A stretch of 64,000 nt of DNA from a virus, in the IMG/VR virus record IMGVR_UViG_3300037137_001027, positions 64,001-128,000 of that record; one strand, given 5' to 3'. The position numbers and the translations under genes are program-made. The notes below the pieces were generated by a model, which searched no databases, had not been told where the DNA came from, and saw only the letters and a program-made list of their open reading frames with translations. Positions 17-31,434 of this stretch are shown in pieces; position 1 is the stretch's first letter, and each line of letters opens with the position of its first letter.

Positions 17-42
17 TAATTGAGGTTGTACTAATCCAGACA
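17..42 (+). promoter_or_regulatory. Representative copy of the array motif; probable phage early promoter, predicted TSS 10 nt after the T of GTACT
   Basis: TAATTGAGGTTGTACT-AATCCAGAC-AGGAGG; the same spacing to a Y|R step recurs in most copies. Confidence 0.75.
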
Positions 43-55
43 GGAGGAAACACAA

Positions 56-292
56 ATGCTTGACGCTTATTGCAAACTGCTCTACGGTATCGGCTCTTGC
101 GACGATGGCGTTGAAACCGTCCTGTCCCCAAACGCTTTCGCTGGCCTGATCGACCTGACCCGCGCCGTCTATGGCGAACACGCTGCCGAAGTAGTTAAGA
201 ATCAATTTCAAATGAACAAACAAGGCGGCTGGACCTGCCCTATGGAAGAAATCGAAGACGCCTTCCGCCTCTGCCTGACTGGAGTAGGCTAG
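56..292 (+). CDS. hypothetical protein
   Basis: ORF with AGGAGG RBS directly behind the motif. Confidence 0.8.
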   Translation: MLDAYCKLLYGIGSCDDGVETVLSPNAFAGLIDLTRAVYGEHAAEVVKNQFQMNKQGGWTCPMEEIEDAFRLCLTGVG

Positions 293-549
293 TGAATCGC
301 AGTAACTTCATCAACGTCGCTACCAACAGCAACGACGGCAGCAAAATTGCTTGGACCGACGAAGAATTGCTTGAAGCAATCGAAGTGCTGCAATGTCTTG
401 TTGCCTATTTTAGCACAAGAAAAGAATGCCTAATCGCCCATGCGCTGCGACTGGAACTAATGAGCATGGAAGGATTTGCTAACGCTCGCAAATGGGTATG
501 CAATGGCGATACCTGGCAAATTAGACGGAAGGACGGCACCCTTGTCTAA
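292..549 (+). CDS. hypothetical protein
   Basis: ORF coupled to the previous stop. Confidence 0.7.
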   Translation: MNRSNFINVATNSNDGSKIAWTDEELLEAIEVLQCLVAYFSTRKECLIAHALRLELMSMEGFANARKWVCNGDTWQIRRKDGTLV

Positions 550-826
550 ATACTACGCCTTCATCATTGCGCTTATAATCCCTTGCATCCTGGCAGCGGA
601 ACAGCAACCGAATCATTACCTGGCCCCACTCCAGAAAGGCACCGAAATTACCTTTCGGGAAGCCCCTGGCGGCTACAAAATTACACTGCAATCCCCTGGC
701 ACACACAAGGTTACAGCAATGGACCCCGATTTCGTGACCATTACCGATGCCGCTGGCGTTACAACCATCCGCATCGGTAAGAATGCGGTCCTGTCTATTA
801 CCGAAATTAAGATACCAAAGAGGTAA
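542..826 (+). CDS. small secreted or membrane-anchored protein (probable TTG start)
   Basis: Signal-like YYAFIIALIIPCILAA followed by a beta-rich domain; GGAAGG upstream. Confidence 0.65.
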   Translation: MSKYYAFIIALIIPCILAAEQQPNHYLAPLQKGTEITFREAPGGYKITLQSPGTHKVTAMDPDFVTITDAAGVTTIRIGKNAVLSITEIKIPKR

Positions 827-831
827 AAACA

Positions 832-999
832 ATGTATCTTGTTCACGCAACCGCTCCCTTCCGTGGTGGTAACAAAGGCTGGGATTTCCGCGCTGATTAC
901 TTCCCGCGTAAAGTTCACTATAAGAAGGAAGCGCTCGCCCTGGCTCAAGAGGCTAAGGCCAAAGGCGCTACCAACGTCAAGCTAGAGAAGATCAAGTAA
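832..999 (+). CDS. hypothetical protein (55 aa, not in ORF track)
   Basis: GAGG RBS, MYLVHATAPF...; its stop is the TAA of the next motif. Confidence 0.7.
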   Translation: MYLVHATAPFRGGNKGWDFRADYFPRKVHYKKEALALAQEAKAKGATNVKLEKIK

Positions 1000-1021
1000 T
1001 TGAGGTTGTACTAAGCTGGGC

Positions 1022-1225
1022 ATGATAATCAAAACCACATCCCACCGATCAAGGGAAAAGCTAAAACAACTCCTGGGCTATATGCCCCAAGGTTATTTTA
1101 GCTTCTATAAGAACGGCGACTGGCGGGAAGTCCCCGATGATCGTTCGGAAGACGTTTTGAAAATCAAAGGTATCAGCCGTTCCAAACTGCCTGAAACAGC
1201 TAGACAATACATTGATTGGAGCTAA
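1022..1225 (+). CDS. hypothetical protein, probably leaderless
   Basis: ATG 9 nt after the motif core. Confidence 0.75.
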   Translation: MIIKTTSHRSREKLKQLLGYMPQGYFSFYKNGDWREVPDDRSEDVLKIKGISRSKLPETARQYIDWS

Positions 1226-1228
1226 GAA

Positions 1229-1483
1229 ATGGCTAACTGGCGTTATAAGATCGAATTGAACAAGGTTCTCACCGAAATGTCCGAGAAGCATGACCTCGAA
1301 CGACATGAGGCCCGCTGCCCAAAGGAAGTCAAGGAAGCTATCGCCAAGGAACTTGAAAAGGCTTGGCCGCTCAAGCGCTTCTGCGAAAAAATCCTTAATG
1401 CCAAGAGCATCGCCCAAGTCAATCGTATCTTGAAAAACGTCTGGAATGCCGCTGACCGTGAACTTGTCTGGTGCGGACTGTAA
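1229..1483 (+). CDS. hypothetical protein
   Basis: GGAG RBS, co-oriented ORF. Confidence 0.75.
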   Translation: MANWRYKIELNKVLTEMSEKHDLERHEARCPKEVKEAIAKELEKAWPLKRFCEKILNAKSIAQVNRILKNVWNAADRELVWCGL

Positions 1484-1518
1484 CTCCATTTGTTAATTGC
1501 GGTTGTACTAATCAGGAC

Positions 1519-1941
1519 ATGGAGAATAAAATGAAACTCAATGAACTTGAACAAAAAGCAGTCGATCATATCCGCCACAACGCTACTCGCTACGGCACCA
1601 GCGGCGGCGGTATGTTTGACAATCCCAAAACCCACGAAGATAAACGAACCCGCAAGCTGCTCGATAATGGCGTAATTCTCTACGTCGGCTGCGGCTCCCG
1701 CACTGAAAGCGGCTGGATGGGCGGCGCTGGCCTGATCCCCGCCGATATGTTTGATGCCACCAAACATACCAAACTGTCCGTCGATAGGGATTCCAGCCTG
1801 AAAGTGGTTGAACAAAAGTGTAATAATTCCCTGGCAATGGTCTATCACGTTGTCCTCGATGGCATCACCATTGCCGAATGCCGCGACCCTTATTGGGCAA
1901 ACTATCTGGCAAAGGCTATCAAGGGAAATCGCTACACCTGA
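1519..1941 (+). CDS. hypothetical protein (start 1519 or 1531)
   Basis: ORF behind motif 1494. Confidence 0.75.
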   Translation: MENKMKLNELEQKAVDHIRHNATRYGTSGGGMFDNPKTHEDKRTRKLLDNGVILYVGCGSRTESGWMGGAGLIPADMFDATKHTKLSVDRDSSLKVVEQKCNNSLAMVYHVVLDGITIAECRDPYWANYLAKAIKGNRYT

Positions 1942-1998
1942 TTTAGCCGAATCAAAGTAGCACACACACAAAAAGTTCTGCCCCACTACATAAAGAAT

Positions 1999-2235
1999 AT
2001 GTATTGGATTGCACGATTCGGACCAATTGAAGTAGGCAGAGTTACCACCATCCCTGGCAACCTGCCCTACTTCGTTACAATTAACGCCGTCGCCGTTAAA
2101 CAACTATGCAGCACCCCACTACCCGAAACAGCCTTTATTAAATCATTCAGTGATTTTTATGCTGCCGAAGCCTACGCAACGTCCTTCTTCCCACTGGATA
2201 CCCAACCATTCATCGAATGGACCCAATTTAATTGA
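1999..2235 (+). CDS. hypothetical protein
   Basis: ORF ending inside the next motif. Confidence 0.6.
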   Translation: MYWIARFGPIEVGRVTTIPGNLPYFVTINAVAVKQLCSTPLPETAFIKSFSDFYAAEAYATSFFPLDTQPFIEWTQFN

Positions 2236-2253
2236 GGTTGTACTAATCCCAAT

Positions 2254-2568
2254 ATGATTACTACAGCAAACGCTCTGGATGCACTGAAAGATAAATTCAT
2301 CACCGACTGGCGAATGAAACTCTGTCGGGATGATAACCTGAAATGGAAGTCCCCCGTCGTCACCAGCGATAAGGTTTCTGTGTCCAACGAAACCTATGGT
2401 AAGACTTCATACCTGTACTTCCATGCCAAAACCGCTGAATTGGCCAAAGAAATTGCGGCAACCCTCCGCACCATCGGCGGCAAACCCAACTTCGGCTGGT
2501 GCGCATCTGACCCCACTTGCTTCGATTTACAAGTGTCCCGCTTCAACGGCTACCACTGGTGGGAATAA
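2254..2568 (+). CDS. hypothetical protein, probably leaderless
   Basis: ATG 9 nt after the motif core. Confidence 0.8.
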   Translation: MITTANALDALKDKFITDWRMKLCRDDNLKWKSPVVTSDKVSVSNETYGKTSYLYFHAKTAELAKEIAATLRTIGGKPNFGWCASDPTCFDLQVSRFNGYHWWE

Positions 2569-3233
2569 TGAACTACAAAATCCTACTCGATGAAGCAAAA
2601 TTCGATGAATTTACTAACTTCCTCCCCGACCTGGAAGCCAACGAAGTCTATTACCTCTCCCTCTTCGCCCGACATAAATACTGTACCTCTGTCCCTAACA
2701 TAAAAGACAACCAACTCGCCCGCTTCACCAGCAGCAAAGAAACCCTGAAAGAACACATCCTTCGTCTGGAATGCTCCATCGGTGGCTATAAAAGAGAAGG
2801 AATTGACGTTCCCCAAGAAGCATTGGCGCTTTACATTGCCCTGAATCCCCGTAATATAGTTAAAGCAAATAAAGAACTTTTGGTCGAATTGGCTAAGTGC
2901 TTCGCGGAAGGAAAAGCCGATTTTAACCCGCTGTCCCTCGCCCGTACCGCTATCCACCACGCAACAAACCGTAAAGTCTTTGTAGACTTTGATTATGATT
3001 TTATCGCTCCAGAAACCCATTTGCCCAAAATTAAGGAAGTTTTACCAGATAACGCATTCAAAATCCTTAAAACAAGAGGCGGCTTCCACATCCTAGTCCT
3101 ACTCGCTAATGCTCCTAAAACCAACTGGTTCAAAGCACTAAGCAACCTAGAAGGCTGTGACGTTAAAGGTAGTAATACCCTTATTCCCGTCCCTGGCTGT
3201 ACCCAAGGCGGATTCACCCCTTACCTGGAGTAA
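2568..3233 (+). CDS. hypothetical protein with AEP/primase-like motifs
   Basis: VFVDFDYD and KTRGGFHIL resemble AEP motifs I and II. Confidence 0.45.
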   Translation: MNYKILLDEAKFDEFTNFLPDLEANEVYYLSLFARHKYCTSVPNIKDNQLARFTSSKETLKEHILRLECSIGGYKREGIDVPQEALALYIALNPRNIVKANKELLVELAKCFAEGKADFNPLSLARTAIHHATNRKVFVDFDYDFIAPETHLPKIKEVLPDNAFKILKTRGGFHILVLLANAPKTNWFKALSNLEGCDVKGSNTLIPVPGCTQGGFTPYLE

Positions 3234-3236
3234 AAT

Positions 3237-3575
3237 ATGCCGACGAATAACCCCACTGGTTACGAAACCTATGTCTACGATCATAGACAATACCCCCACG
3301 CCAACTATGATGGCGCTATCTACGAAAGTCGCCAACATGCCAACGCGCCGCTCCATGACCCGAAATCCCTCCCTAAACCTGAATGCGATAACGATTCCCT
3401 ACCCCGCGTCATGGTCGAACCATGCTACGCCAGCCGCTCCAACGATGTTTGGCTCTATTTCAGGGAAGGTCATAGCATCATGCTCCCCCGCATCATGGCC
3501 GAACAACTAAGAGATGCCCTAATCAAAGTCTGCGAGAAACCTAAACAAGAAAAAACAACATGGGAAACCCAATAA
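3237..3575 (+). CDS. hypothetical protein
   Basis: GGAG RBS; stop overlaps the motif. Confidence 0.7.
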   Translation: MPTNNPTGYETYVYDHRQYPHANYDGAIYESRQHANAPLHDPKSLPKPECDNDSLPRVMVEPCYASRSNDVWLYFREGHSIMLPRIMAEQLRDALIKVCEKPKQEKTTWETQ

Positions 3576-3597
3576 GTAAGGTTGTACTAATAACAAT

Positions 3598-3762
3598 ATG
3601 AACACCAAATACCCACTACTCGACGCCGAAGCAAAACGCATCGCCTCCGATACCTGCAAGGCTATTAACCTAGCCTCCCAAAACACCCAAGATGAAGGTA
3701 TGCCCTATAAGGCCCAATATATCTTGGAAGAGGTTATTAAAATCCTGAAGGAGAAGGTCTAA
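3598..3762 (+). CDS. hypothetical protein (54 aa), probably leaderless
   Basis: ATG 9 nt after the motif core; MNTKYPLLDAE. Confidence 0.7.
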   Translation: MNTKYPLLDAEAKRIASDTCKAINLASQNTQDEGMPYKAQYILEEVIKILKEKV

Positions 3763-3933
3763 ATGTCCCGTAAAGACGCAATCCGTGCGCTCGCCAAGGA
3801 TTTTATCAAATTCGTCACCAAAGAAGATGATAAAACTGGCGCACTCAACGCCTGGAACCTTAAACTCCAAGAAGACCTCGCAAAACAAATTAAATACGAA
3901 TTGGAAGAACAACTCCCCAAAGAAGACCTATGA
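3763..3933 (+). CDS. hypothetical protein (56 aa)
   Basis: GGAG/AAGG RBS; MSRKDAIRALAK. Confidence 0.65.
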   Translation: MSRKDAIRALAKDFIKFVTKEDDKTGALNAWNLKLQEDLAKQIKYELEEQLPKEDL

Positions 3934-3963
3934 TTAAACAATCGAGGTTGTACTAATCAAAAC

Positions 3964-4413
3964 ATGGACACCAACATCGCTGTATCACTGGCCCGCCAAC
4001 TAATGATCGACCACGGTTTGGGCCACTGGTCCTTTGAATTCGACCGCGCCAAACGCCGCGCTGGTTGCTGCAAACACCGTAGCTCAATAATTAGCCTGAG
4101 CTATGTCTACACCACCCGTAATAGCGAACCCGAAGTCAAAGATACCATCCTGCACGAAATTGCCCATGCCCTCGCTGGCCCAAAACAAGGCCACAATAAC
4201 GTCTGGAAAACTATCTGTCGCAGAATCGGCGCTAAACCCGTTCGCTGCTATAGCGCTGATACTGTCGATATGCCCAAAGGTCGCTGGAAAGCACAATGTA
4301 ATTCTTGTAAAAAGGAATTCCATGCCCACCGTCGCCCTAAAAACCACATGAATCGCTATTGTACCCGCTGTGGCCCCGTCAACGGCGCAATCACCTTCAA
4401 ACAAGGATACTAA
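3964..4413 (+). CDS. SprT-like zinc metalloprotease
   Basis: RRAGCC, DTILHEIAHAL, GHNNVWK and C-terminal CxxC...CxxC. Confidence 0.85.
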   Translation: MDTNIAVSLARQLMIDHGLGHWSFEFDRAKRRAGCCKHRSSIISLSYVYTTRNSEPEVKDTILHEIAHALAGPKQGHNNVWKTICRRIGAKPVRCYSADTVDMPKGRWKAQCNSCKKEFHAHRRPKNHMNRYCTRCGPVNGAITFKQGY

Positions 4414-4415
4414 AC

Positions 4416-4694
4416 ATGACCGAATCCATCTTCTTCACCGTTATTAACCCCCATACCGAAGAAGAAACCAGAATCAATATCTCTATTAACCCCGAAGAAA
4501 AAATCTTCGCGGTTAATAATATCCTAATCGACCCCCAACAACTGGCCGAACTAGGAATGCTCCTGTTCGCCCTGGCTAACCAACACGGTCAACCTGACCT
4601 GGACTCCTGCAACGAACTACTCTACGGCTTTGATATTCCACTCCCTATCAAGGCGCTCAAAGAGGTTATCGACATAGAAAAGGAAGTTGCATGA
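4416..4694 (+). CDS. hypothetical protein
   Basis: AAGGA RBS, co-oriented ORF. Confidence 0.7.
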   Translation: MTESIFFTVINPHTEEETRINISINPEEKIFAVNNILIDPQQLAELGMLLFALANQHGQPDLDSCNELLYGFDIPLPIKALKEVIDIEKEVA

Positions 4695-4891
4695 AATTCT
4701 TCGATCTTAAAATTCGTATTAGCTCCAATTACCAAACAGAAAAAGAGGTAATGGAGAAGTTTGGAGAATGGCTCGCTGCCACTAAAGGTATCAAAACCTC
4801 TCTTTGGCAAGGTAATTCCTGCATCGTTGAACTTGGCGTTACGCAACTGTCCGAAAAGAATGCGTCAATCGGAGCAAACCATGAAAATTGA
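4691..4891 (+). CDS. hypothetical protein
   Basis: ATGA coupling to the previous gene. Confidence 0.65.
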   Translation: MKFFDLKIRISSNYQTEKEVMEKFGEWLAATKGIKTSLWQGNSCIVELGVTQLSEKNASIGANHEN

Positions 4892-5294
4892 CCCACGCTT
4901 TAAGGATACTGAATTCGTTGTCGAAGCCGATTCCTTCGCCCGTCTTGCCCTGTGGGAACGCTTCTCCACCGAAGCACTACATAAAACCGAATTGAATACC
5001 ATTAACTGGCAACAAGACTCTATGGGAACCTGCTACCAAGTCGGCTCCCTAGATAATCGACCAGTTAATATCGACTTCGTTTGGGCCAAACTCAATAACC
5101 ATTTAATCCTCTTTTACCACGCCTGCTCCCAAGTAGTCGATCATAAAATGGTCGAAAATTGGATTGAAAAATACTGTAACCCCCAACATAACGAACGCCG
5201 CTCCCATTGTGATGCTAATAACTTCGCTCATGCTATTAGCTATATCTCCAACTTCGCTGGCTGGGAACCTACCGCTCCCGCCAGTAAAGCCTGA
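4881..5294 (+). CDS. hypothetical protein
   Basis: GGAG RBS before MKIDPRF. Confidence 0.75.
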   Translation: MKIDPRFKDTEFVVEADSFARLALWERFSTEALHKTELNTINWQQDSMGTCYQVGSLDNRPVNIDFVWAKLNNHLILFYHACSQVVDHKMVENWIEKYCNPQHNERRSHCDANNFAHAISYISNFAGWEPTAPASKA

Positions 5295-5544
5295 GACGCT
5301 CTAAATAATATCGGTAATCAAATAACCGATTATTAACCACCCTGTTATGACGCCGATATAACCAAAAATTAAAGTATGACACATCCTATCTATCACCAGC
5401 GGAATCTATTCACCTATCTATTCACCAATTTCCGCAAACCCCATGAAATCAAGCGTTTAGGGCAAAAGAATCTATTCATCTTGTCAGAAAAACACCCCCA
5501 CTTTCCTGACAAACCCAAAGAATTGCGGTTGTACTAATAGAAGC

Positions 5545-5805
5545 ATGAACACCAAACTTAAAACTGGCTCAATCATCCTGGTCCACGGCTGGATTATGAC
5601 CAAAGGACTAGACGGCGGGCAGAAATACCGCGTCCAATCAATGCCAGACCACCACGGCATCCCTACCTACCAGTTTACTAAGGCAAAAGGTAAGAAACTC
5701 GTCGCTCGACATTACATTGGCGATATTGATGTTTGGATTAGGACAAAAGATCATCCCGACCTGAACCGAATTGAAATACTTGACGCCACCCCACAAACAA
5801 AGTAA
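5545..5805 (+). CDS. hypothetical protein, probably leaderless
   Basis: ATG 9 nt after the motif core. Confidence 0.75.
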   Translation: MNTKLKTGSIILVHGWIMTKGLDGGQKYRVQSMPDHHGIPTYQFTKAKGKKLVARHYIGDIDVWIRTKDHPDLNRIEILDATPQTK

Positions 5806-8282: not shown

Positions 8283-9311
8283 ATGGACGCTGTTGAGACG
8301 ATGGGTTATGTTGGTGCGACTCCTTGGCACGGCAAGGGCAAGTCGGTTACGAATGAGGATGCCATGTACAACAGCAAGTTGTTCGTGGCGGAATGCGGTT
8401 TGAATTGGGAAGCGGAGAAGCGGCAGTTGTATCGTACCCGCGTCGGCGGTGATGGTGCATCGGTCTACGAACCCGCGTCGGCGTGGGAAGTGGTCCGCAA
8501 GAGCGATGGTCACGTTCTGGCCGACATGGTAGGCGAGCGGTATACCATTCTCCAGAACGAGGAAGCGTTCGCGTGGTTCCAGGGCTGGCTTGATGCCAAG
8601 GAAGCGGCGTTGCATACGGGCGGCGCGTTGTTCGGTGGTTCCCGCATTTGGGCGCTTGCCAAGTTGAACCGTGATCCTATGGAAATCGCTGCTGGCGATA
8701 TTGTGGAGAAGTACGTTCTTCTCTCCCATAGCCACGACGGTTCCCTTGCGGTGCGCGTCGGTTTCACCCCGATTCGCGTGGTTTGCTGGAACACGTTGAG
8801 CATGGCGAATAAGTCGGATGCTTCCAAGCTCATCCGCCTGAAGCATTCCAAGAATGTCCATCAGAACTTGGACAACTTGCGGGATGTGATGAACCTTGTC
8901 AATCAGGACTTCGAGGCGACGGCGGAACAATACCGTCTGTTGCAGCGCAAGTCCATCAATCAGAACGACTTGCGTAAGTACGTCAAGCGAGTTCTGAAGG
9001 TGGACGCGGAGGACAGCGTTATTTGGACGGGTTCGGCCCGCAGCAAGGAAATGAAGGAAGTGGTTTCCGAGCGGGAAAAGAACACTCTGGACAAAGTGAT
9101 TGGCCTTTGCGAATCGGGCAAGGGTAACAATCTACCGTCCGTGCGTGGTACTTACTGGTCCGCTTACAATGGCGTGACGGAGTATCTGAGCTACGTCAAG
9201 GGACGGAACGAAGATAACCGTCTGAACGCCTTGTGGTTCGGTACGAACGCGACGACGAACAGGGATGCGTTGTCCGTCGCGGTGGATATGGCGAGCGGCA
9301 TGGCCGTCTAA
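8283..9311 (+). CDS. DUF932 (TIGR03299-like) phage/plasmid protein
   Basis: MGYVGATPWHG, YTILQNEEAF, LSHSHDGS, TPIRVVCWNTL, GTYWSAYNGVTEY. Confidence 0.88.
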   Translation: MDAVETMGYVGATPWHGKGKSVTNEDAMYNSKLFVAECGLNWEAEKRQLYRTRVGGDGASVYEPASAWEVVRKSDGHVLADMVGERYTILQNEEAFAWFQGWLDAKEAALHTGGALFGGSRIWALAKLNRDPMEIAAGDIVEKYVLLSHSHDGSLAVRVGFTPIRVVCWNTLSMANKSDASKLIRLKHSKNVHQNLDNLRDVMNLVNQDFEATAEQYRLLQRKSINQNDLRKYVKRVLKVDAEDSVIWTGSARSKEMKEVVSEREKNTLDKVIGLCESGKGNNLPSVRGTYWSAYNGVTEYLSYVKGRNEDNRLNALWFGTNATTNRDALSVAVDMASGMAV

Positions 9312-22817: not shown

Positions 22818-23060
22818 ATGATTACCAAGGAATTCGCGGCTGGCTTGCACAAGGGCAAGACTCTGTATCACGCCACTGCCACGAACGCGGACGGCACGGC
22901 CAAAAGGTGCCGAATCAACGGCAAGCTGAAGATGTGGGTAACACGGCCCAATGAGTTCCGTATCCCCGTCAAACATGGCTTGTGGGATTGCTTCTATATC
23001 ACCCAAGACAACGCCAAGGAATGGCTCACCTACGACCGCACCGAACAAAAGGCCGCATAG
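22818..23060 (+). CDS. hypothetical protein (ends QKAA)
   Basis: Full cassette. Confidence 0.8.
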   Translation: MITKEFAAGLHKGKTLYHATATNADGTAKRCRINGKLKMWVTRPNEFRIPVKHGLWDCFYITQDNAKEWLTYDRTEQKAA

Positions 23061-23154
23061 TTAGGGGTGGGCAGGGGACCGCAAACCCTGCCTTTTTTTA
23101 TCCTCTAATTAAGGTTGTACTAATTGTGGTATAACCCTAACCCTGGAGGCGACA

Positions 23155-23373
23155 ATGATCTGGTGCATCACCGCGACGATTGAAAAGAAAACGAAAGACG
23201 GCGTGCAGACGAGTCAAATTCCCACGTTCTTCCTCGATGGCCGCGTGCAAGGTATCATGAACGAGGGACACGCGAAGTTCATCGGCGCTGAAATTATCAA
23301 CCCCATGCGGCTGAAAAATATCACGCTGCATGTGAGCGCCATCGCCGCTGACCGCGAAGTATGGGCAGCGTAA
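23155..23373 (+). CDS. hypothetical protein (ends VWAA)
   Basis: Full cassette. Confidence 0.8.
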   Translation: MIWCITATIEKKTKDGVQTSQIPTFFLDGRVQGIMNEGHAKFIGAEIINPMRLKNITLHVSAIAADREVWAA

Positions 23374-23450
23374 AGGGAAGGGAGCGCCCACTCCCATTAT
23401 ACCCTAATTGGGGTTGTACTAATTGGTGTATAACCCTAACGGAGAAAGCT

Positions 23451-23627
23451 ATGAAGATCATCGCAGCGTATCACAAGGACAGTCGCAAGAATTTGACCCC
23501 CGAACAAATCCAGGCCGATATGCCTGCCCTGGAGAAAGAACACAAGAAAGCGCTGGCAGCAGAAGCAACGTGGCAATTCTTCGGCGGCATCATCGTCATC
23601 GGGGAACACGAATACCAAGTCTGCTAA
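23451..23627 (+). CDS. hypothetical protein
   Basis: Full cassette. Confidence 0.72.
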   Translation: MKIIAAYHKDSRKNLTPEQIQADMPALEKEHKKALAAEATWQFFGGIIVIGEHEYQVC

Positions 23628-23706
23628 GGGAAGGGAGCGCCCACTCCCATTATACCCTAATTGGGGTTGTACTAATTGGTGTATAACCCTAACACTGGAG
23701 GCTGTC

Positions 23707-23913
23707 ATGCGGTTTGAAGTGTGCATCAAGTACGGCAATCGCTGGAGCTACAAGGGCATTTACAGCGCTAACACATCACGCGCTGCTGCCCTGGACGCAA
23801 GCTATTCGTGGAACCGCAAGGTTATCCGCGTGCGGCCCGAAGATAGCCGCGACAAGTGGCTTGTGTATCGCTTCCAGTACGTCGGCACGCTAACCTCGTC
23901 CAGCGGAGTCTAA
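23707..23913 (+). CDS. hypothetical protein
   Basis: Full cassette. Confidence 0.78.
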   Translation: MRFEVCIKYGNRWSYKGIYSANTSRAAALDASYSWNRKVIRVRPEDSRDKWLVYRFQYVGTLTSSSGV

Positions 23914-23998
23914 GGGGAAGGGAGCGCCCACTCCCTAATCATCCCTTAATTGAGGTTGTACTAAATCAGGTGTAGCAACAACCCCAACGGAGAAAGCC

Positions 23999-24184
23999 AT
24001 GACTCGGAAAGATTACGAATTGTTCGCCAAGATGCTGCGGGAAGTCCCCAGCGCGGCCAAGCGGCTCGACTTCGCGGCGGAACTGGTCAAGGTGTTCGCT
24101 GCCGATAACGAACGCTTCAACGAGGCGACGTTCCGCAATGCGGCGGATTGCAAGGTATCAAGGAAGGGGGAATACGCCAGCTAG
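23999..24184 (+). CDS. hypothetical protein
   Basis: MTRKDYELFA...DNERFN; full cassette. Confidence 0.78.
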   Translation: MTRKDYELFAKMLREVPSAAKRLDFAAELVKVFAADNERFNEATFRNAADCKVSRKGEYAS

Positions 24185-24271
24185 GGCAAGGGAGCGCCCA
24201 CTCCCATTATCCCCTAATTGGGGTTGTACTAAATCAGGTGTAGCGAACATCACCCCTTTCTGGAGGCTACC

Positions 24272-24478
24272 ATGATCGTCTGTGACACGCCTGACAAAAT
24301 CGAAGCGTTTCGTCTGCTGGCGCTTCGTGGCGCTCTCAAGCTCGAATGCAAGGGCTTGCGGCGCAAGGGCCAATCGGTCGCCACTCTCGTCAAGCGGGAA
24401 TTCTCCCTGCGTGGCACCAATCAGCAAGTATTGGACCAATTCGAGGCTCTTTTGCAGGAAAGGTGGATTCTTGTCTAA
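24272..24478 (+). CDS. hypothetical protein
   Basis: Full cassette. Confidence 0.78.
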   Translation: MIVCDTPDKIEAFRLLALRGALKLECKGLRRKGQSVATLVKREFSLRGTNQQVLDQFEALLQERWILV

Positions 24479-24567
24479 GGGAAACGGGGAGGGACCGCTA
24501 ACCTCCCCAATCATCCCTTAATTAAGGTTGTACTAATTGGTGTATAACCTAACCCCTGGAGGCTGTC

Positions 24568-24828
24568 ATGAAAATCGTATCTATGTTCCAGACCTGTGAC
24601 GGCAAGACGTTCACGGACAAGAACGAGGCTCAACGCCATGAAAACGAGCATGAGGCGCTCGCCAAACTTCGCAGCTTACTGAATTCCGCAATTCAGTCGG
24701 AACTGACGCGGCGCGGCAACATCGACAACATCCTCCACAGTATCCTGATGGAGAGCGCGGAAGTCCGCAACATCCTCATCACCTACAACAAGAAGATGCC
24801 AAAGGAAGCGGCAAAGGTCGCCGCATAG
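24568..24828 (+). CDS. hypothetical protein (ends KVAA)
   Basis: FQTCDGKTF; full cassette. Confidence 0.8.
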   Translation: MKIVSMFQTCDGKTFTDKNEAQRHENEHEALAKLRSLLNSAIQSELTRRGNIDNILHSILMESAEVRNILITYNKKMPKEAAKVAA

Positions 24829-24916
24829 GGCAAGGGAGCGCCCACTCCCATTATCCCCTAATTGGGGTTGTACTAAATCAGGTGTAGCGAACATCACCCC
24901 TTTCTGGAGAAGTGCC

Positions 24917-25231
24917 ATGACGAATCGCATCACTGCTGCCGTTGCCCGCATGGAAAAGCAAATTGCTGACCGTATCGCCAAGGGCTTGACAACGCAAGCC
25001 AAAGTCGATGCGCTGCACGCGCATCTCGACCTCGACATTCTGGAACACGCCAAGTTTCAGGAATACAAGTCGCTGGCCTACACCGAGGGCAAACTGACCC
25101 TCGATGAATCGCAGTCGCTGTACAACTTGCTGGGCAATACCGCCAGCACGTTCAACCGCCAACCCATCGCCGTCAAGTCCGTTCTCACCTCGCTGTTCGC
25201 GGAACTGCTCAAGATGCGCATGGCAAGCTAA
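24917..25231 (+). CDS. hypothetical protein
   Basis: Full cassette. Confidence 0.8.
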   Translation: MTNRITAAVARMEKQIADRIAKGLTTQAKVDALHAHLDLDILEHAKFQEYKSLAYTEGKLTLDESQSLYNLLGNTASTFNRQPIAVKSVLTSLFAELLKMRMAS

Positions 25232-25328
25232 GGGGAAGGGCAGGGGAACGCCAACCCTGCCCCTTTTATCCTCTAATTGAGGTTGTACTAATCTAGGTGT
25301 AGCGAGAACTCCTTACTGGAGAAACGCG

Positions 25329-25586
25329 ATGATCGCTGAATACGCGCTGGACAATCTGCTGGTTGGCCAAAAGGACCGCATCCTTGGCCTCTGCAATGCG
25401 GAGAAGTATGAGGAGGCGCTCTTGCTGCTCGACTTCACGGAGGAGATGTGGGCGGCTTGTCAGTACGCTTACAAAACGCGGGAAATACGCGACCGCATCC
25501 GCCGCGACCTAAACGAAAACGTCTGGAATGCGGAACACTGGAAACAGAAAGAGAAGTGGCAAAAGTTGCTCGTTACGGTGCCGTAA
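25329..25586 (+). CDS. hypothetical protein
   Basis: Full cassette. Confidence 0.78.
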   Translation: MIAEYALDNLLVGQKDRILGLCNAEKYEEALLLLDFTEEMWAACQYAYKTREIRDRIRRDLNENVWNAEHWKQKEKWQKLLVTVP

Positions 25587-25673
25587 AGGGAAGGGAGCGC
25601 CCACTCCCTAATTAACCTCTAATTGAGGTTGTACTAATTACAGTGTAGCGACAACCCCAACTGGAGAAGTGCC

Positions 25674-25865
25674 ATGATGAATCATCTCTACGGTGAGAAG
25701 CTGGTTGACGGCAAGACGGTCACGCTGGATCACGCGGTACAGGAATTCACCGTCGTCATTCGTTCGTGCAGCGGGATTCACCCGCAAACGCTGAAAGACC
25801 TCATCGAGCGCAAGTTCGAGGTCGTCAGCATCAAGGCGGGCGAAAGCAAAGAGTACGTCAGCTAA
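25674..25865 (+). CDS. hypothetical protein
   Basis: Full cassette. Confidence 0.75.
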   Translation: MMNHLYGEKLVDGKTVTLDHAVQEFTVVIRSCSGIHPQTLKDLIERKFEVVSIKAGESKEYVS

Positions 25866-25941
25866 AGGGAGCGCCCACTCCCATTATACCCTAATTGGGG
25901 TTGTACTAATTGGAGTATAACCCTAACCCCTGGAGGCAATC

Positions 25942-26199
25942 ATGGCGACTCGATTCATCATCAAGACGGACAATCCCGAAGGCATTCCCAGCACTTGGGA
26001 AATGAGCGATTTCGAGATGAAGCACGGCTTGAACGTCAACGAGGTGGACAAGCTGTATGTGACGTTCAAGGTGAAGAAGCGCCGCAAGATCAAACGGCTG
26101 CGCATCAACGTGAAAGTGCATCCTTGCGAGTTATGCGGTTCGCACGCATACGCAAGCGGCAGCGTCGGCAGCAAGGAATTCGACAAGGAACTTTACTAA
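25942..26199 (+). CDS. hypothetical protein
   Basis: Full cassette; CELCGSH. Confidence 0.78.
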   Translation: MATRFIIKTDNPEGIPSTWEMSDFEMKHGLNVNEVDKLYVTFKVKKRRKIKRLRINVKVHPCELCGSHAYASGSVGSKEFDKELY

Positions 26200-26287
26200 G
26201 GGGAGGGCAGGGGAATGCAAACCCTGCCAATCATCCTCTAATTAAGGTTGTACTAATTGTGGTATAACCCTAACACTGGAGGCGGTC

Positions 26288-26476
26288 ATGAAGGTTTGCG
26301 AGCGATGCGGCTGCGAGATTGCCACGAAGGACGGGGACAACCTTTGCCGCGATTGCGACGAAGGCAAGAAGAAGCGGGACAAGCGGAATGCGTCCCGCAA
26401 AGCCCGCGAGGATGCGCTCCGCTCCATTGGTCTGGTCAAAGTCAAGGGCGCTCTTGGTGGAACGTATTGGGAATAA
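26288..26476 (+). CDS. zinc-finger protein
   Basis: CERC...CRDC. Confidence 0.78.
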   Translation: MKVCERCGCEIATKDGDNLCRDCDEGKKKRDKRNASRKAREDALRSIGLVKVKGALGGTYWE

Positions 26477-26570
26477 GGGTAGGGGAGGACCGCAAACTCC
26501 CTAATTAACCTCTAATTGAGGTTGTACTAAATCAGGTGTAGCGAACATCACCCCTTTCTGGAGAAGTGCC

Positions 26571-26846
26571 ATGAAGCTGCAAAACGTCACCGTCGTCATC
26601 CTGGCCCGCGTCGAGAACAACGGCCTCAAGGTGGCCAGCGTCATCGACAATCCCGAAGTGCCGTCCAGCGGCGGCAAGCCCGTCATCGGCCCGCTGATGC
26701 GGCGGCTCATGTCGGTCAAGGAGGTCGTCGCGCGGACGGGACTGAGCAAGGGCAAGGCCGCTGATGCGCGGCGGCTCAACCCAATGACCTACCTGGCCGA
26801 CTTCGAGGGGCAATCGCCACTGGCGTTGTCGCTCCAGGCCGCGTAA
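26571..26846 (+). CDS. hypothetical protein (ends LQAA)
   Basis: Full cassette. Confidence 0.78.
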   Translation: MKLQNVTVVILARVENNGLKVASVIDNPEVPSSGGKPVIGPLMRRLMSVKEVVARTGLSKGKAADARRLNPMTYLADFEGQSPLALSLQAA

Positions 26847-26992
26847 CAATAAGGCGGTCGCTGCGGCAAGGTCGATCAGTCCACCCGTGGGACCGCAGGG
26901 CAGGGGGGGAACCCCTGCCTTTTTTGTTATCATCCCGTAATTAAGGTTGTACTAATTTGTGTGTAGCCAACAACCCCTTACGGAGAACTGCG

Positions 26993-27193
26993 ATGCGACA
27001 CTACATCAGTCGGCAGAAGGCGCAGAGCTACGGCGGATTCATCTACTACCAGTGCAAGCGCGGCAAGTACATGCTGGTGAACTACCACGGCGAAACGATG
27101 TGGATGGGATACGTCCAGCCCCACGGCTTCTACGTCGTTCCCTTCGACCACGCCAGGGGCCAGAGCGAACAACTCAAAGACATGGTAGCATAA
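26993..27193 (+). CDS. hypothetical protein
   Basis: Full cassette. Confidence 0.75.
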   Translation: MRHYISRQKAQSYGGFIYYQCKRGKYMLVNYHGETMWMGYVQPHGFYVVPFDHARGQSEQLKDMVA

Positions 27194-27300
27194 CGTTAGG
27201 GGTGAGGCAGGGGACCGCAACCCTGCCTTTTTTCAATCATCCTCTAATTGAGGTTGTACTAATCTAGGTGTAGCGAACATCACCCCTTTCTGGAGCAATC

Positions 27301-27573
27301 ATGCTGACCAACACTTGCAAGCCCCGCTTTGCTACGCTGAATCTCACGATGGAACAGCGGTTGCAGCGCTGTGCCACGCCCATGACCAAGTTCACCCTGT
27401 TCAACGCACTAACGGGCCGCGCCATCAAGGGCGGCAGCACCATCAGCATCAACGGGATTCCGTGCATTCTCTCCAGCATTCAGAGAGAGGACGGAAGCGG
27501 CAGCAGCTTCAACCTCATCGTCTACGGCCCCGACAACCAGCCATACAAATGCTACTGCCGCACAACGGACTAA
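27301..27573 (+). CDS. hypothetical protein
   Basis: SIQREDGSGSSFN; full cassette. Confidence 0.78.
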   Translation: MLTNTCKPRFATLNLTMEQRLQRCATPMTKFTLFNALTGRAIKGGSTISINGIPCILSSIQREDGSGSSFNLIVYGPDNQPYKCYCRTTD

Positions 27574-27643
27574 GGGGAAGGGAGCGCCCACTCCCATTTA
27601 CAAGATCATTGCGGTTGTACTAAATAGAGTAAGGAGGACAATC

Positions 27644-27829
27644 ATGCACCAGACAACCGCAATCCGCCGCAACGACAAGGGCTTTATCATCAAGCTCGGT
27701 CCCGCGCCCGAACGCGGCAACCTGTTCCGCATTGCGGATCAGATCGGTATGGCCGCTGCTACTGACAAGCGCCAGCATCGCCGCCGTACCAAGGCCGCAC
27801 GCAAGGCCCGCCGCTGGAAAGCGGAGTAA
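27644..27829 (+). CDS. small basic protein
   Basis: AAGGAGG RBS; Arg-rich C-terminus. Confidence 0.72.
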   Translation: MHQTTAIRRNDKGFIIKLGPAPERGNLFRIADQIGMAAATDKRQHRRRTKAARKARRWKAE

Positions 27830-27922
27830 CAACAAGGGAGCGCCCACTCCCTAATGAGCCTCTAATTGAGGTTGTACTGATCGAGGTGTAGGACGAGTCA
27901 ACCCCTTTCAAGGAGCCATCGC

Positions 27923-28168
27923 ATGAACGCTCTGGTACAGGTCGGCGTCGGTGAGGTCATCGCGTCCCGCAAGCTGACTGGTGGCGGCATCCTGGTGCAG
28001 CGGCTTTGCTGCTCTTGCAAGCACGCTTTCTGGTCGGCCTACAACGAACACAAGAGCGCGTGTGCCGATTGCGACCCGCCCGCCAAGCGGCCCGAATCGC
28101 GGGGTATCGGTCGCAACCTCGACCGCAAGGCGAGCGACCGCCAATATCACGGTAGCAACGTGGAGTAA
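27923..28168 (+). CDS. zinc-ribbon protein
   Basis: CCSC...CADC. Confidence 0.75.
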   Translation: MNALVQVGVGEVIASRKLTGGGILVQRLCCSCKHAFWSAYNEHKSACADCDPPAKRPESRGIGRNLDRKASDRQYHGSNVE

Positions 28169-28275
28169 CGCGGGGAAGGGCAGGGACCACAACCCTGCCT
28201 TTTCCTAATGAACCTCTAATTGAGGTTGTACTAATCAGGGTGTAGGACGAGTCAACCCTTAACCTGGAGACGACG

Positions 28276-28500
28276 ATGCACGATCACGGTTACACTCCCC
28301 CGCTCCCGTCCACCCGCGACGAACTGATCCGCGACACGAAGGCCGCGCTGAAGATGCTGAAGATGCTCCGCGACTTCGGCGTTGACCTCCGCGACAAGAA
28401 GATCATGGCGATCAAGCACCTCCGCACGCAGACGGGCCTCGGCCTCCGCGAAGCGAAGGAAGCCGTCGAGTTCGGCATGGAGTTGCTGGACGCAGCGTAA
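28276..28500 (+). CDS. ribosomal protein bL12 (L7/L12) C-terminal-domain-like protein
   Basis: KKIMAIKHLRTQTGLGLREAKEAVE matches the L7/L12 CTD signature KI.xIK.VR..TGLGLKEAK..VE. Confidence 0.75.
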   Translation: MHDHGYTPPLPSTRDELIRDTKAALKMLKMLRDFGVDLRDKKIMAIKHLRTQTGLGLREAKEAVEFGMELLDAA

Positions 28501-28612
28501 CACGTTAGGGGAGGGGCAGGGGAACGCCACCCTGCCCTTTTTATCATTACAGTATCATTGAGGTTGTACTAATTGGGGTGTAGGACGAGTCAACCCCTTG
28601 CGGAGAACTGCG

Positions 28613-28927
28613 ATGCATACCACCGACTCCATCCGCGACCTCCTCACCCGCAACCCCAAGGCCGTTTACAGGGCGCTTGTCGTCCTGTTTGAGCGGCAGA
28701 CGGACGATGAGAAGGAGAGCGAGGAAACCAAGCACGACAACGGGCGCGGCTTCAATTACCGCGATGCCAAGTTCGGTTCCGACTTGGCGCAGAAGTGCAT
28801 CCGCCCCGACCCGCGCTACCCTTCCCCGCTCTCCGTCAATCAGCTTGCTGCGGCCCGCCGTATGCTGCACAAGTACGCTGGCCAGCTTGCCCGCATTGCC
28901 AACGGGCAGGAAACGGTCGAGGTATGA
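28613..28927 (+). CDS. conserved-looking phage hypothetical protein
   Basis: RALVVLFERQTDDE...NGRGFNYRDA...LSVNQ...KYAGQL. Confidence 0.8.
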   Translation: MHTTDSIRDLLTRNPKAVYRALVVLFERQTDDEKESEETKHDNGRGFNYRDAKFGSDLAQKCIRPDPRYPSPLSVNQLAAARRMLHKYAGQLARIANGQETVEV

Positions 28928-28934
28928 CCAAACG

Positions 28935-28959
28935 ACCCGCCCGCAAGGGCGGGTTTTTT
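28935..28959 (+). terminator. intrinsic terminator
   Basis: ACCCGCCC-GCAA-GGGCGGGT-TTTTT. Confidence 0.85.
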
Positions 28960-28976
28960 ATTACCAATTTAGTTCC

Positions 28977-28993
28977 AGTACAACCTCATTTAA
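28977..28993 (-). promoter_or_regulatory. single inverted copy of the array motif
   Basis: Reverse complement reads TTAAATGAGGTTGTACT. Confidence 0.7.
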
Positions 28994-29277
28994 TGCCAAT
29001 TTATACTGTACAAACTAGCGCCATGCCTGGAATGCGATTAAATCGCTTTTAAGCCACTCTAACCCTAAAACCGACCCGACATAGCCTTGACCCATTTGCG
29101 CTCGTCTCAAGCGATCCTGGCGCGATTACGGGCCATTTGAACCTCGAACCTCGACCGACTTTTGCGCCGTTCCATTCGCCTATGGTACGCTGGTATATGG
29201 CACCGTGCTAATGGTACTCTAATTGAGGTTGTACTAAATCAGGTGTAGCGAAGATCACCCCTTTCTGGAGTACGACG

Positions 29278-29493
29278 ATGCCGCGTTGCGAAGATTACCC
29301 CTGCTGTGGCCATGAGGCGGGTTGCTGCCCGAACTACGACCGCACTGGCAAGCAGACCGACATGGTTTGCACCTGCGGCGCTCGCCTGCCGATCACGGCG
29401 CGCTACTCCATCTGCGAGACGTGCCTCCGTGACGACGACGACGACGGCCCCGACTATCGGGGCGACGACTGGCAGGAGGTGGACGAATACTAG
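29278..29493 (+). CDS. Cys-rich hypothetical protein
   Basis: RCEDYPCCGH...CTCG...CETC. Confidence 0.78.
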   Translation: MPRCEDYPCCGHEAGCCPNYDRTGKQTDMVCTCGARLPITARYSICETCLRDDDDDGPDYRGDDWQEVDEY

Positions 29494-29598
29494 GGGAAGG
29501 GCAGGGGAACGCCACCCTGCCCTTTTTTGTTATTAACCTCTAATTGAGGTTGTACTAAATCAGGTGTAGCGAACATCACCCCTTTCTGGAGTACGACG

Positions 29599-29955
29599 AT
29601 GGGAACCCGCCTCTACCCGAACACCACCGACCGCGCGGCCCTGGAAGTTCTCGCTGGCGTTCCCGCTGGCACACACGCCCGCATGGACGAAATGGCCAAG
29701 CGGCACGCCGAGGCGAAGGTTGACCCCTTCGACCAGGAGGCGGGTTACGCGCAGTGGAAGGAGCGCAACGACGACGGGCCGATTGGCGACCTCGACGCCT
29801 TCCTCACCTTCGGCTGGGGCAAGTTCCGCCCCGTGGACGGGATCGGGGAGGACTGCGCGGGCCATGAGGACAACCTCGACCGCGCGGCTCGCCTGTTGCG
29901 GGCGAACGGGATCGGTGCGAACGTGGCAATGACGGGGGGATTGCACTGGGGCTAG
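29599..29955 (+). CDS. hypothetical protein
   Basis: Full cassette. Confidence 0.8.
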   Translation: MGTRLYPNTTDRAALEVLAGVPAGTHARMDEMAKRHAEAKVDPFDQEAGYAQWKERNDDGPIGDLDAFLTFGWGKFRPVDGIGEDCAGHEDNLDRAARLLRANGIGANVAMTGGLHWG

Positions 29956-30053
29956 GGGAAGGGCAGGGGAACGCCAACCCTGCCTAATTAACCTCTAATT
30001 GAGGTTGTACTAATTACAGTGTAGGACGGATCACCCCTTACGGAGTCTGACCC

Positions 30054-30281
30054 ATGTTCGCACTGTACGTTGACAACGGCACTGGTGAACTCAGCCGCGC
30101 AGTCTTCACGCTGGAAGAGATGCGCAACTACAGTGGACCTCGGCCCACTTACCTCCGCATTGGCGAGAGCGGGGAGCGCGTTTCGTGGGATACGTTCAAG
30201 GCCATTTGCGCGACGTGTCGGCCCGACGACGCGGACGACGACCCCGACAACCTCTTCGTCTATCGCAGCGACGACAACTAG
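30054..30281 (+). CDS. hypothetical protein
   Basis: Full cassette. Confidence 0.75.
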   Translation: MFALYVDNGTGELSRAVFTLEEMRNYSGPRPTYLRIGESGERVSWDTFKAICATCRPDDADDDPDNLFVYRSDDN

Positions 30282-30371
30282 GGGAAGGGAGCGCCCACTC
30301 CCTAATTAACCTCTAATTGAGGTTGTACTAATTGGGGTGTAGGACGAGTCAACCCCTTACGGAGTACGATC

Positions 30372-30827
30372 ATGGAAGCCGCACTGAAGCTGACCGATGC
30401 CAAGCCCGTCCGCAAGCCCCGCACGGCCCGCAAGGTCAAGCCCGTCGCCGCCGCGATGAAGCCCGATCACCTCCAAGCCTACGCCACCGTGGGCGTCATG
30501 TTCATGGCCGTTCTGTCCGCGCTGCTGAACGGCTACGCGAACGCGGCGAGCGCCGAGGTTGCGTGGGCAGGCTGGGGTATGGGCTTGGCCGTTCCCGTTA
30601 TCATCTTGCTCTTGGGCAAGGTTGCGGGGTTGCTCTACAAGCGCGGGCAGAAGCGCGCTGCCCTTGCTACTGCCAGCGCTGGCATTGGCTTGCTCGCGCT
30701 GTCCGTTTGGCACGTTAGCCTTTCCATCGCCGCCTTGACGGGAAGCCCGATCATGCTGGCAATGCCAATGGCGGTTGCAATCGACTGCGGTTTCGTCTGC
30801 TGCGAGGTAGCGGCCTTGCTCGACTAG
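30372..30827 (+). CDS. integral membrane protein, about 4 TM helices
   Basis: Basic N-terminus followed by four hydrophobic segments. Confidence 0.78.
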   Translation: MEAALKLTDAKPVRKPRTARKVKPVAAAMKPDHLQAYATVGVMFMAVLSALLNGYANAASAEVAWAGWGMGLAVPVIILLLGKVAGLLYKRGQKRAALATASAGIGLLALSVWHVSLSIAALTGSPIMLAMPMAVAIDCGFVCCEVAALLD

Positions 30828-30937
30828 GGCAAGGCAAGGGCAGGGGAACGCCAACCCTGCCCTTTTTGCTAATGATCCTCTAATTGAGGTTGTACTAAAT
30901 CAGGTGAGGACGAGTCACCCCTTTCTGGAGACGAACG

Positions 30938-31051
30938 ATGAACTACGCTTACTTGCGGCTCGCGGCTTGGATGAAGATGATGCAAGGGGGCGAGCGGCGG
31001 CGGTGGGCGCGGGTCTGCAACTACCTTGACGCGAGGATGATGCGCTCTTGA
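30938..31051 (+). CDS. 37-aa peptide
   Basis: Full cassette with GGAG RBS. Confidence 0.6.
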   Translation: MNYAYLRLAAWMKMMQGGERRRWARVCNYLDARMMRS

Positions 31052-31434
31052 CCAAGGGCAGGGGAACGCCAACCCTGCCTAATTAACCTCTAATTGAGGT
31101 TGTACTGAATGGGGTAGGAGGATACCCCTGGGCATCGCCCATGCCCATTGAATTGTTATTAAGGTTGTACTAACATAATTAACATATGATTAATTAATTT
31201 CATTTTCTGTTTAAAAAAGTAACATCAGGGTGCCTACCGTGGACGCCATACCAGTGAGTTCTTTAAAAAAGTCAATTTCAAAATTAGCCGCCAGGGATTT
31301 TTCAAAATTCCACACATATCTTAAAAAAACTAATTTTTCCATTTTCCAAAAAATATACCAATCCAAAAAATTACCATTAGTAAAGTTTTGAAAAAATCTA
31401 CAATGGATTTTTCAAAACTTTACTATATTAAGGT

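Follow-up and report, generated by a model that had tools for sequence, protein, structure and literature searches.

Does a 19-bp motif that recurs through 31 kb of a viral genome only express the genes that it precedes, or do its copies also serve as boundaries at which these genes are gained, lost and reordered? The question is raised by the stretch of DNA analysed here (the window), 64,000 nt that correspond to bases 64001-128000 of the 159.5-kb IMG/VR virus record IMGVR_UViG_3300037137_001027 (hereafter G000). We consider it probable that the repeats are promoter modules between which homologous recombination shuffles small genes, in the manner of the promoter-early stem-loops (PeSLs) described in T4-type phages (Arbiol et al. 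2010, PMC2839356; Comeau et al. 2014, PMC4122927), but with another promoter and much more densely packed. Both the promoter and the shuffling readings appear well supported by comparative sequence evidence.

When up to three mismatches are allowed, the window contains 60 matches of the motif at positions 17-31174, all on the + strand, where shuffled sequences lead one to expect 0.02; the 33 kb after 31174 contain none. With up to four mismatches the number rises to 67, and a degenerate copy at 18634 can be added, which agrees with the roughly 68 co-oriented copies, absent past 31.2 kb, that had been reported in a preliminary description of the window. That description had also placed the start of the array within the window, and here a scan of all of G000, which it had proposed, leads to a correction. 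The complete set comprises 95 + strand copies (up to four mismatches) spread over 86 kb, from genome position 8764 to 95156 (-55236 to 31156 in window coordinates), so that it begins 55 kb upstream of the window. The - strand of G000 has only two weak matches. The 95 copies are intergenic and co-oriented with the genes, motif positions 8-15 (GGTTGTAC) are invariant in all of them, and the late/tail-gene region of G000 holds none. The TAA within the motif doubles as the stop codon of the upstream gene at 997, 3573, 11654, 12023 and 18634, as noted before.

The distance between the motif and the start codons points to a promoter. At 14 copies the ATG of an ORF (open reading frame) follows exactly 6 nt past the motif, while about 1.5 such cases would arise by chance, and at one further copy it follows at 7 nt. 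The 14 ORFs encode 54-366 aa and leave no space for a Shine-Dalgarno (SD) sequence; leaderless mRNAs are predicted from this spacing. At most other copies, the seventh base is a purine and begins one of a small set of stereotyped leaders, which are 17-41 nt long and end in GGAG and ATG; the leader classes cluster along the array. Because the ATG spacing and the purine/leader geometry coincide at the seventh nucleotide, we place the putative transcription start there, and the motif would then span about -25 to -7. The motif is most likely a compact promoter, phage-specific and not sigma-70-like.

GC-rich hairpins are located 0-15 nt upstream of nearly every motif copy between 8 and 31 kb of the window, and those of the densest part of the array fold with a mean energy of -17.4 kcal/mol, compared with -10.4 +/- 4.5 for random 55-mers. 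Two types recur (examples in the table). Type A, with 20 near-identical copies directly upstream of motifs, has no T-run, and type B, with 12 copies, is mostly followed by a T-run and resembles an intrinsic terminator; the remaining motif-upstream hairpins are unique GC hairpins, many of which bear a T-run. A consensus scan of positions 11400-31300 found 42 terminator-like sites against 23.5 +/- 4.8 in shuffled sequences. Over the same positions, sigma-70-like promoters were not enriched (8 against 11.7 in shuffles). The candidate promoter itself has no -35/-10 pair. The resulting order, a stem-loop upstream of a promoter followed by an SD-type GGAG leader and an ATG, is the layout of a PeSL. 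As a separate observation, the CGCC(C)A loop of the hairpin that lacks a T-run is kept across G000 and two of the relatives introduced below (L141 and L143) despite diverged promoter flanks, which hints at sequence-specific recognition.

The motif copies are not evenly distributed. Positions 16519-31174, the dense array, contain 42 of them, on average about 350 bp apart and each with a single ORF of 37-162 aa behind it, whereas at positions 17-16500 the motif heads operons of one to six genes, many without any leader. The unit proposed earlier, composed of motif, GGAG leader, one small ORF, stop and hairpin, therefore describes the dense array strictly and does not apply to the part before it, where operons occur and leaders are often absent. 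The ORFs are mutually unrelated, as had been stated for neighbouring ones, with one paralogous pair among about 200 (blastp, 1e-3). Most are orphans: among 84 ORFs, six Pfam families were matched, namely DUF932, SprT-like, Zn_ribbon_SprT, T4 Rnl1-like RNA ligase, L7/L12 C-terminal-domain-like and DUF7717. Since Ka/Ks (nonsynonymous to synonymous substitution ratio) between orthologues of close relatives is mostly 0.05-0.5, the array ORFs are real genes under purifying selection. An early or host-takeover role is suggested by the gene content (rIIA, RNA ligase and orphan genes).

The nearest genome is that of an uncultured huge phage, LR756511.1 (595,163 bp), with a baseplate protein 63% identical to that of G000. 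Since G000 is collinear with about 160 kb of LR756511.1 in an ORF-by-ORF tblastn comparison, it appears to represent about a quarter of a huge-phage genome of about 600 kb. CheckV rates G000 as 79% complete, an estimate that is probably far too high. The contexts of six homologues of the first conserved gene past the array (31983-32633) were fetched from public assemblies, and a further relative, the 63-kb IMG/VR contig G001, was found by a motif scan with 18 specified bases, the other 22 matches of which were due to chance. All the fetched relatives possess a co-oriented array of small genes with the same anatomy of hairpin, motif, 6-nt gap, purine and leader, and the array of L141 lies in a 623-kb contig. 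The motif has a lineage-specific consensus each time, whose TGTAC core never varies and always lies equally far from the start. LR756511.1 has no homologue of the anchor protein; at 2.2-18.9 kb it carries about 46 copies of a further motif variant, with GCTGTACT as its core, some of which precede an ATG by 6-7 nt and are predicted to be leaderless. The place where a -10 hexamer would lie shows no conservation between lineages, which would favour a phage-specific reader over the host primary sigma factor. A scan of a viral collection with 14 nt of the motif yielded, among the matches listed, only chance single matches; the one match of a hairpin-plus-motif scan in metagenome contigs (L137) was likewise dismissed as chance, since it contains no copy of the motif and is not otherwise similar. 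When the first 20 kb were compared with GenBank phages by megablast, no match was obtained, and a literature search on LR756511 and comparable huge-phage arrays found nothing relevant.

Comparison of G000 with G001 reveals how the array changes. Outside the array the two are 76-90% identical in nucleotide sequence and collinear over 54 kb. G001 retains 6 kb of the array, in which 13 cassettes are common to both, one of them only 45% identical; one cassette is replaced, one is extra in G001, one has moved and two are found only in G000 (29220 and 30881). None of the 11 alignment ends within the array lies farther than 42 nt before or 64 nt after a motif start, which places all of them within the module of hairpin, promoter and leader. 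The six genomes compared keep a recognisable backbone order, but many families change position and numerous cassettes within common spans are unshared. Adjacency is retained in 8 of 12 cases between G000 and G001 and in 15 of 21 between the relatives L139 and L140, and it is lower in more distant pairs. Only 14% of the dense-array genes have a homologue in LR756511.1, compared with 35-47% in most of the remaining promoter-driven region, and those that do are partly out of order. Two duplicated cassettes exist. In the aligned relatives, then, neither are cassette content and order identical nor are the breakpoints unrelated to the motif; the places where cassettes have been gained, lost, replaced, duplicated or reordered coincide with the repeated boundaries, as had been suggested. 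The further suggestion that genes are captured from outside is among the parts of the preliminary description that found no support.

The modules themselves also change partners. Orthologous ORFs that are 80-92% identical between G000 and G001 have different leader classes or hairpin types. For leaders, the module of the positional orthologue is the closest match in only 2 of 12 cases, and for upstream segments in 4 of 12 (5 of 12 and 6 of 12, respectively, between L139 and L140). Leaders and hairpins are thus decoupled from the ORFs that they accompany. Synonymous divergence (Ks) of the orthologous cassettes of G000 and G001 ranges from 0.11 to 0.80 and is heterogeneous (chi-square 30.1, 11 degrees of freedom, p about 0.002, with approximate site counts), which fits cassette-wise exchange. 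In the dense array, 77 module pairs share an exact in-register match of at least 25 nt, up to 84 nt, while elsewhere in the region a single pair does; matches of up to 84 nt are long enough for RecA-type recombination.

LR756511.1 encodes a RecA (E 1e-116) and three proteins of 165, 186 and 333 aa with sigma region 2, in one of which region 4 is recognised as well and in two of which region 2 alone is recognised. Neither tyrosine nor serine recombinases were found in the 159.5-kb G000, and the tyrosine recombinase family PF00589 is absent from both G000 and the complete 595-kb LR756511.1, in searches whose controls matched. RecA and the gp23-type capsid protein have no match in the G000 fragment. 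For T7-type RNA polymerase (PF00940), G000 gave no match and LR756511.1 a sub-threshold one of 11 bits, in a search of unproven sensitivity whose control genomes yielded no true positive. Since the fragment is about a quarter of a genome, the absence from it of gp23, RecA, sigma factors and a T7-type polymerase says little.

In the model that we consider probable, the motif would be the core (about -25 to -7) of a phage-specific promoter that drives the whole non-structural part of the fragment. Transcription would start at the purine 7 nt past the motif, giving a leaderless mRNA if this purine is the A of an ATG and an SD leader otherwise, and the upstream GC-rich hairpin would end or stabilise the preceding transcript, so that each unit would be insulated. 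The promoter would be read by a phage-encoded specificity factor, most likely a small sigma-family protein, rather than by the host primary sigma factor. In the last 15 kb of the array, each small gene would have its own module of about 105 nt (hairpin, spacer, promoter and leader), and homologous recombination or gene conversion between modules would excise, insert, duplicate, replace and move single-gene cassettes. Conversion would swap leaders and hairpins between genes, unequal exchange would duplicate cassettes, and recombination between flanking repeats would delete a cassette, possibly as a circle, with the reverse reaction at another repeat inserting it. Such recombination may rely on phage RecA-type machinery like that of LR756511.1. 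Because a cassette would carry its own promoter, leader and hairpin, it would be expressed wherever it lands.

Several points weigh against this model, and some of them would suit a simpler alternative, which we judge unlikely, namely a static promoter array whose repeats have no part in genome change, with illegitimate or homing-type indels and selection for intact genes accounting for the differences. The position of the breakpoints is by itself no proof of module-caused exchange, because selection removes breaks inside genes, and since the intergenic space of the array consists almost wholly of modules, tolerated breakpoints must fall there. A look-up of the exact protein of one cassette retrieved near-identical strains from other samples, in which the cassettes stand in exactly the same order, so that turnover is not rapid on short time scales. 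Indels between G000 and G001 occur outside the array too, and an HNH gene is located at its edge. On the other hand, a static array would not be expected to contain cassettes that have moved, beyond those gained or lost, or leaders and hairpins exchanged between genes whose ORFs remain 80-92% identical, and it fits poorly with the 54 kb of collinearity outside the array. Exchange between modules is argued for more strongly by cassettes that have moved, by leaders and hairpins that have changed partners, and by the partial correspondence of long module identity with turnover. This last argument is weakened by the leaderless run at positions 1-7000, where likewise only 14% of the genes have a homologue in LR756511.1; turnover there is as fast as in the dense array, without long shared modules. 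Logan contigs from four sediment runs, covering positions 11400-31300, consisted of short, repeat-broken pieces with joint sides of 20-27 nt, below the limit of reliability, and speak neither for nor against circles or alternative junctions.

The promoter part of the model has its own difficulties. Promoter activity and the start site are deduced entirely from geometry, neither a T7-type RNA polymerase nor sigma region 2 was found in the 159.5-kb G000, and to tie the promoter to the sigma genes of LR756511.1 is a guess. In addition, the 20 type A hairpins, having no T-run, may not terminate transcription, which makes read-through conceivable, and the strict orientation and intergenic position of the motif would also suit a signal at the RNA level or a protein-binding one, for instance a site at which an endonuclease cuts a long early transcript into monocistronic mRNAs, or a stoperator-like operator for a phage regulator. 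We regard such a non-promoter role as quite improbable. T-run terminators directly precede many copies and would make a new start necessary, and the exact 6-nt gap to ATGs without SD agrees with transcripts whose 5' end is the A itself. Other promoter-like signals are not enriched in the array, and copies of the motif also stand before the first gene that follows a long gap or an RNA gene. The motif seems to behave as a promoter, as had been supposed in the preliminary description. The integron-like system that was envisaged along with it is unlikely. In such a system, hairpins with the CGCCCA loop would be the sites of an unrecognised recombinase, and cassettes would be excised and inserted as circles; the cassette-like layout and a loop sequence that is conserved while the promoter flanks change would agree with this, and a recombinase could be encoded in the part of the genome that lies beyond G000. 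However, the searches described above found no tyrosine or serine recombinase in G000 and no tyrosine recombinase in LR756511.1, the hairpins are perfect GC stems of 5-9 bp without an attC layout, hairpin types interchange at orthologous positions, and many cassettes bear a hairpin that is not repeated elsewhere. Unlike those of integrons, moreover, the cassettes are each equipped with a promoter, and the exchange points include leader and motif and define no single fixed site. A site-specific mechanism of this kind is the least probable of the explanations considered.

Among known systems, the comparison with PeSLs that had been drawn earlier is apt (PMC2839356, PMC4122927). For T4-type PeSLs, indels and mini-circles are documented, and recombination between the regulatory repeats has been proposed as the mechanism and partly demonstrated (PMC2839356, PMC4122927). 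In both systems, the small orphan genes of hyperplastic regions are separated by repeats of a composite of stem-loop, promoter, SD and start; both are tied to insertions, deletions, replacements and ORF displacement between close relatives, have a repeat sequence that varies by lineage, and make a dedicated recombinase unnecessary. They differ in that the candidate promoter is here a contiguous 19-bp element ending at -7, while a PeSL contains a -35/-10 sigma-70 pair with a 17-nt spacer, and in that many units are here predicted to be leaderless. PeSLs are known from T4-type phages, whereas the present array belongs to a huge phage of about 600 kb, with no gp23 capsid gene found in the fragment; RB49 has eight PeSLs in about 5 kb, and here 42 consecutive single-gene cassettes and 95 candidate promoters are found. 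The codon composition of the array is, moreover, strongly unlike that of the rest of the genome, and the array is known from assembled sequence, while mini-circles are documented for PeSLs. The array is a system of the PeSL kind in a huge-phage clade, with an unfamiliar promoter type and denser than the PeSLs of T4-type phages.

With integrons the array shares its single direction, its small unrelated single-gene cassettes, the hairpin-forming repeats between them and a content that varies among relatives. In contrast to integrons, there is no attC architecture, no IntI-type recombinase was found in the two genomes searched, the exchange points are spread over the module, and in place of a common Pc each cassette has a candidate promoter of its own.

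Single-element promoters read by phage-encoded sigma-like factors exist as the late promoters of T4 (gp55) and in phiEco32 (gp36). Like these, the motif is a short phage-specific element near -10 that occurs in many identical copies without a -35 hexamer, and LR756511.1 encodes small sigma-family proteins; the motif differs from them in its unrelated sequence, its greater length (-25 to -7) and its position before non-structural rather than late genes, and its reader is so far a matter of deduction. The promoters of T7, T3 and SP6 are contiguous motifs of about 19-23 bp with lineage variants around a shared core, and the highly conserved contiguous motif described here likewise has lineage-specific variants around a common core. 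It differs from the T7 group in that no T7-type polymerase was found in G000 or, above threshold, in LR756511.1, and in that the conserved block stops 7 nt before the start, which the T7-group motif spans. The host-takeover module of SPO1 contains about two dozen small early genes with strong host-sigma promoters and with many promoters and terminators, and thus resembles the array in its clustered small genes and repeated signals. Mycobacteriophage stoperators and start-associated repeats are, like the motif, oriented, intergenic and multicopy; stoperators are repressor sites, not start signals. We know of no such cassette shuffling for either the SPO1 module or the mycobacteriophage repeats.

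What is known of huge phages comes almost entirely from metagenomes and includes next to nothing about their transcription programmes. The locus offers a sharply defined candidate promoter with a predicted start, lineage variants and candidate sigma-type readers, which can be tested in vitro without a cultured host. It would extend beyond T4-type phages, in a larger and cleaner form, the PeSL idea that regulatory repeats double as recombination handles for accessory genes, and its six natural variants let the gain, loss and movement of cassettes be read directly. The ORFs are mostly orphan, under selection and likely early, so that functions in host takeover or against host defence may well be sought among them.

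The strong, clade-wide split in codon composition within one phage genome is unusual. The G+C content of ORFs at third codon positions (GC3) is 0.32 in the late genes and 0.45, 0.52, 0.61 and 0.72 along the promoter-driven region, in step with the density of the motif; within the window, the contrast is between positions 16519-31174 (0.72) and 50122-63069 (0.32). The relatives L139-L143 and G001 show the same split (0.71-0.79 against 0.34-0.52), as does LR756511.1 (0.58 against 0.40). A chimeric assembly was considered as a cause of the jump in GC and was ruled out, because seven independent assemblies join the same type of array to the same neighbours. The gradient could be due to GC-biased gene conversion in a recombination hot zone, or host tRNAs could serve the first-expressed genes and the approximately 60 tRNAs of the phage the late ones. 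More tentatively, as a view less likely than not, one may envisage the arrays as a clade-wide library of dozens of self-expressing single-gene cassettes in huge phages of about 600 kb, read by a phage-encoded sigma-like factor, with flanks around TGTAC that have diverged by lineage. Recombination between modules would then be so frequent as to make the array evolve like a common pool of genes open to exchange, with the GC3 gradient as its footprint.

Table. Features of the window (positions in window coordinates).
Feature	Position	Strand	Remarks
Window's share of the 95-copy motif set	17..31174	+	67-68 co-oriented copies
Six copies of predicted leaderless type	997..5805	+	Motifs 997, 1494, 2229, 3573, 3939, 5520; ATG after exactly 6 nt, no SD
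DUF932 protein gene, predicted motif-driven	8283..9311	+	72% identical to a gene in the LR756511.1 array
Further predicted leaderless cases	Motifs 9366 and 15347	+	
Mini tmRNA-like gene within the array	9524..9662	+	Next motif overlaps its 3' end
tRNA-Glu(TTC) within the array	13186..13258	+	
T4 Rnl1-like RNA ligase gene	15372..16472	+	Predicted leaderless, motif 15347
Dense array	16519..31174	+	42 cassettes: hairpin, ~11-nt spacer, motif, 6 nt, purine, 17-41-nt GGAG leader, ORF; GC3 0.72
Type A hairpin, example	20975..20990	+	GGGAG stem, CGCCCA loop
Replaced cassette	25892..26238	+	G001 has an unrelated 57-aa cassette here; on either side, homology ends at the hairpin and motif
Type B hairpin, example	26897..26921	+	GGCAGGG...CCCTGCC stem
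Moved cassette, family 9	28217..28554	+	Different array position in G001
Bidirectional terminator and opposing motif copy	28934..28992	.	Terminator 28934-28955, motif 28974-28992; kept in G001
G000-only cassette	29220..29540	+	Absent from G001 (whole-cassette indel); family 18, paralogue of the 29996-30313 cassette
HNH / endonuclease VII-like gene	31435..31920	+	Directly after the last motif; absent from G001, which has two unrelated ORFs instead
First conserved gene past the array	31983..32633	+	216 aa, no known family; anchor for fetching the arrays of relatives

Some individual cassettes deserve mention. The ORF of the replaced cassette has a homologue, 51% identical, within the LR756511.1 array, and the paralogy of the two family 18 cassettes indicates a duplication. 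The moved cassette contains a 74-aa ORF (28276-28500) that matches the C-terminal domain of ribosomal protein L7/L12 (Pfam E 7.8e-7) and is conserved in five relatives. The tmRNA-like gene, 139 nt long, passes the Rfam gathering score and spans the whole 374-position model with the middle mostly missing; in the LR756511.1 array, at about 6.3 kb, a tRNA-like 3' end occupies the same position.

Among its other genes, G000 encodes rIIA, a NAD synthase and a CCA-adding-type nucleotidyltransferase, together with tail genes that include a gp6-like baseplate wedge protein. An 1840-aa ORF in the tail region, which matches no family above threshold, may be the tape-measure protein. Of genes that might point to a T4-type myovirus, the fragment has rIIA, the Rnl1-like ligase and the gp6-like wedge protein, with no gp23 match, and its nearest genome is that of a huge phage. 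LR756511.1 has 63 tRNA genes; one of them, with the anticodon CTA, reads amber stop codons. A comparison of the two genomes shows the dense array inverted with respect to the remaining promoter-driven part (2-19 kb against 19-139 kb in LR756511.1): the two run in the same direction in G000 and converge in LR756511.1.

Around the motif, three smaller observations were made. The sole good minus-strand copy faces the bidirectional terminator at a distance of about 20 nt, an arrangement that is retained in G001, and it could be a relic or could give rise to a very small antisense RNA. Within the dense array, and only there, the 4 nt preceding the motif are complementary to motif positions 6-9, as CCTC..GAGG 15 times and as CCCC..GGGG 4 times, a covariation beyond that of shuffles (p < 0.0005) that may reflect structure, a protein site or linked descent. 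Just past the array, the AT-rich segment at 31200-31430 contains a different short repeat, gatttttcaaaa, at least twice, which may represent another class of signal.

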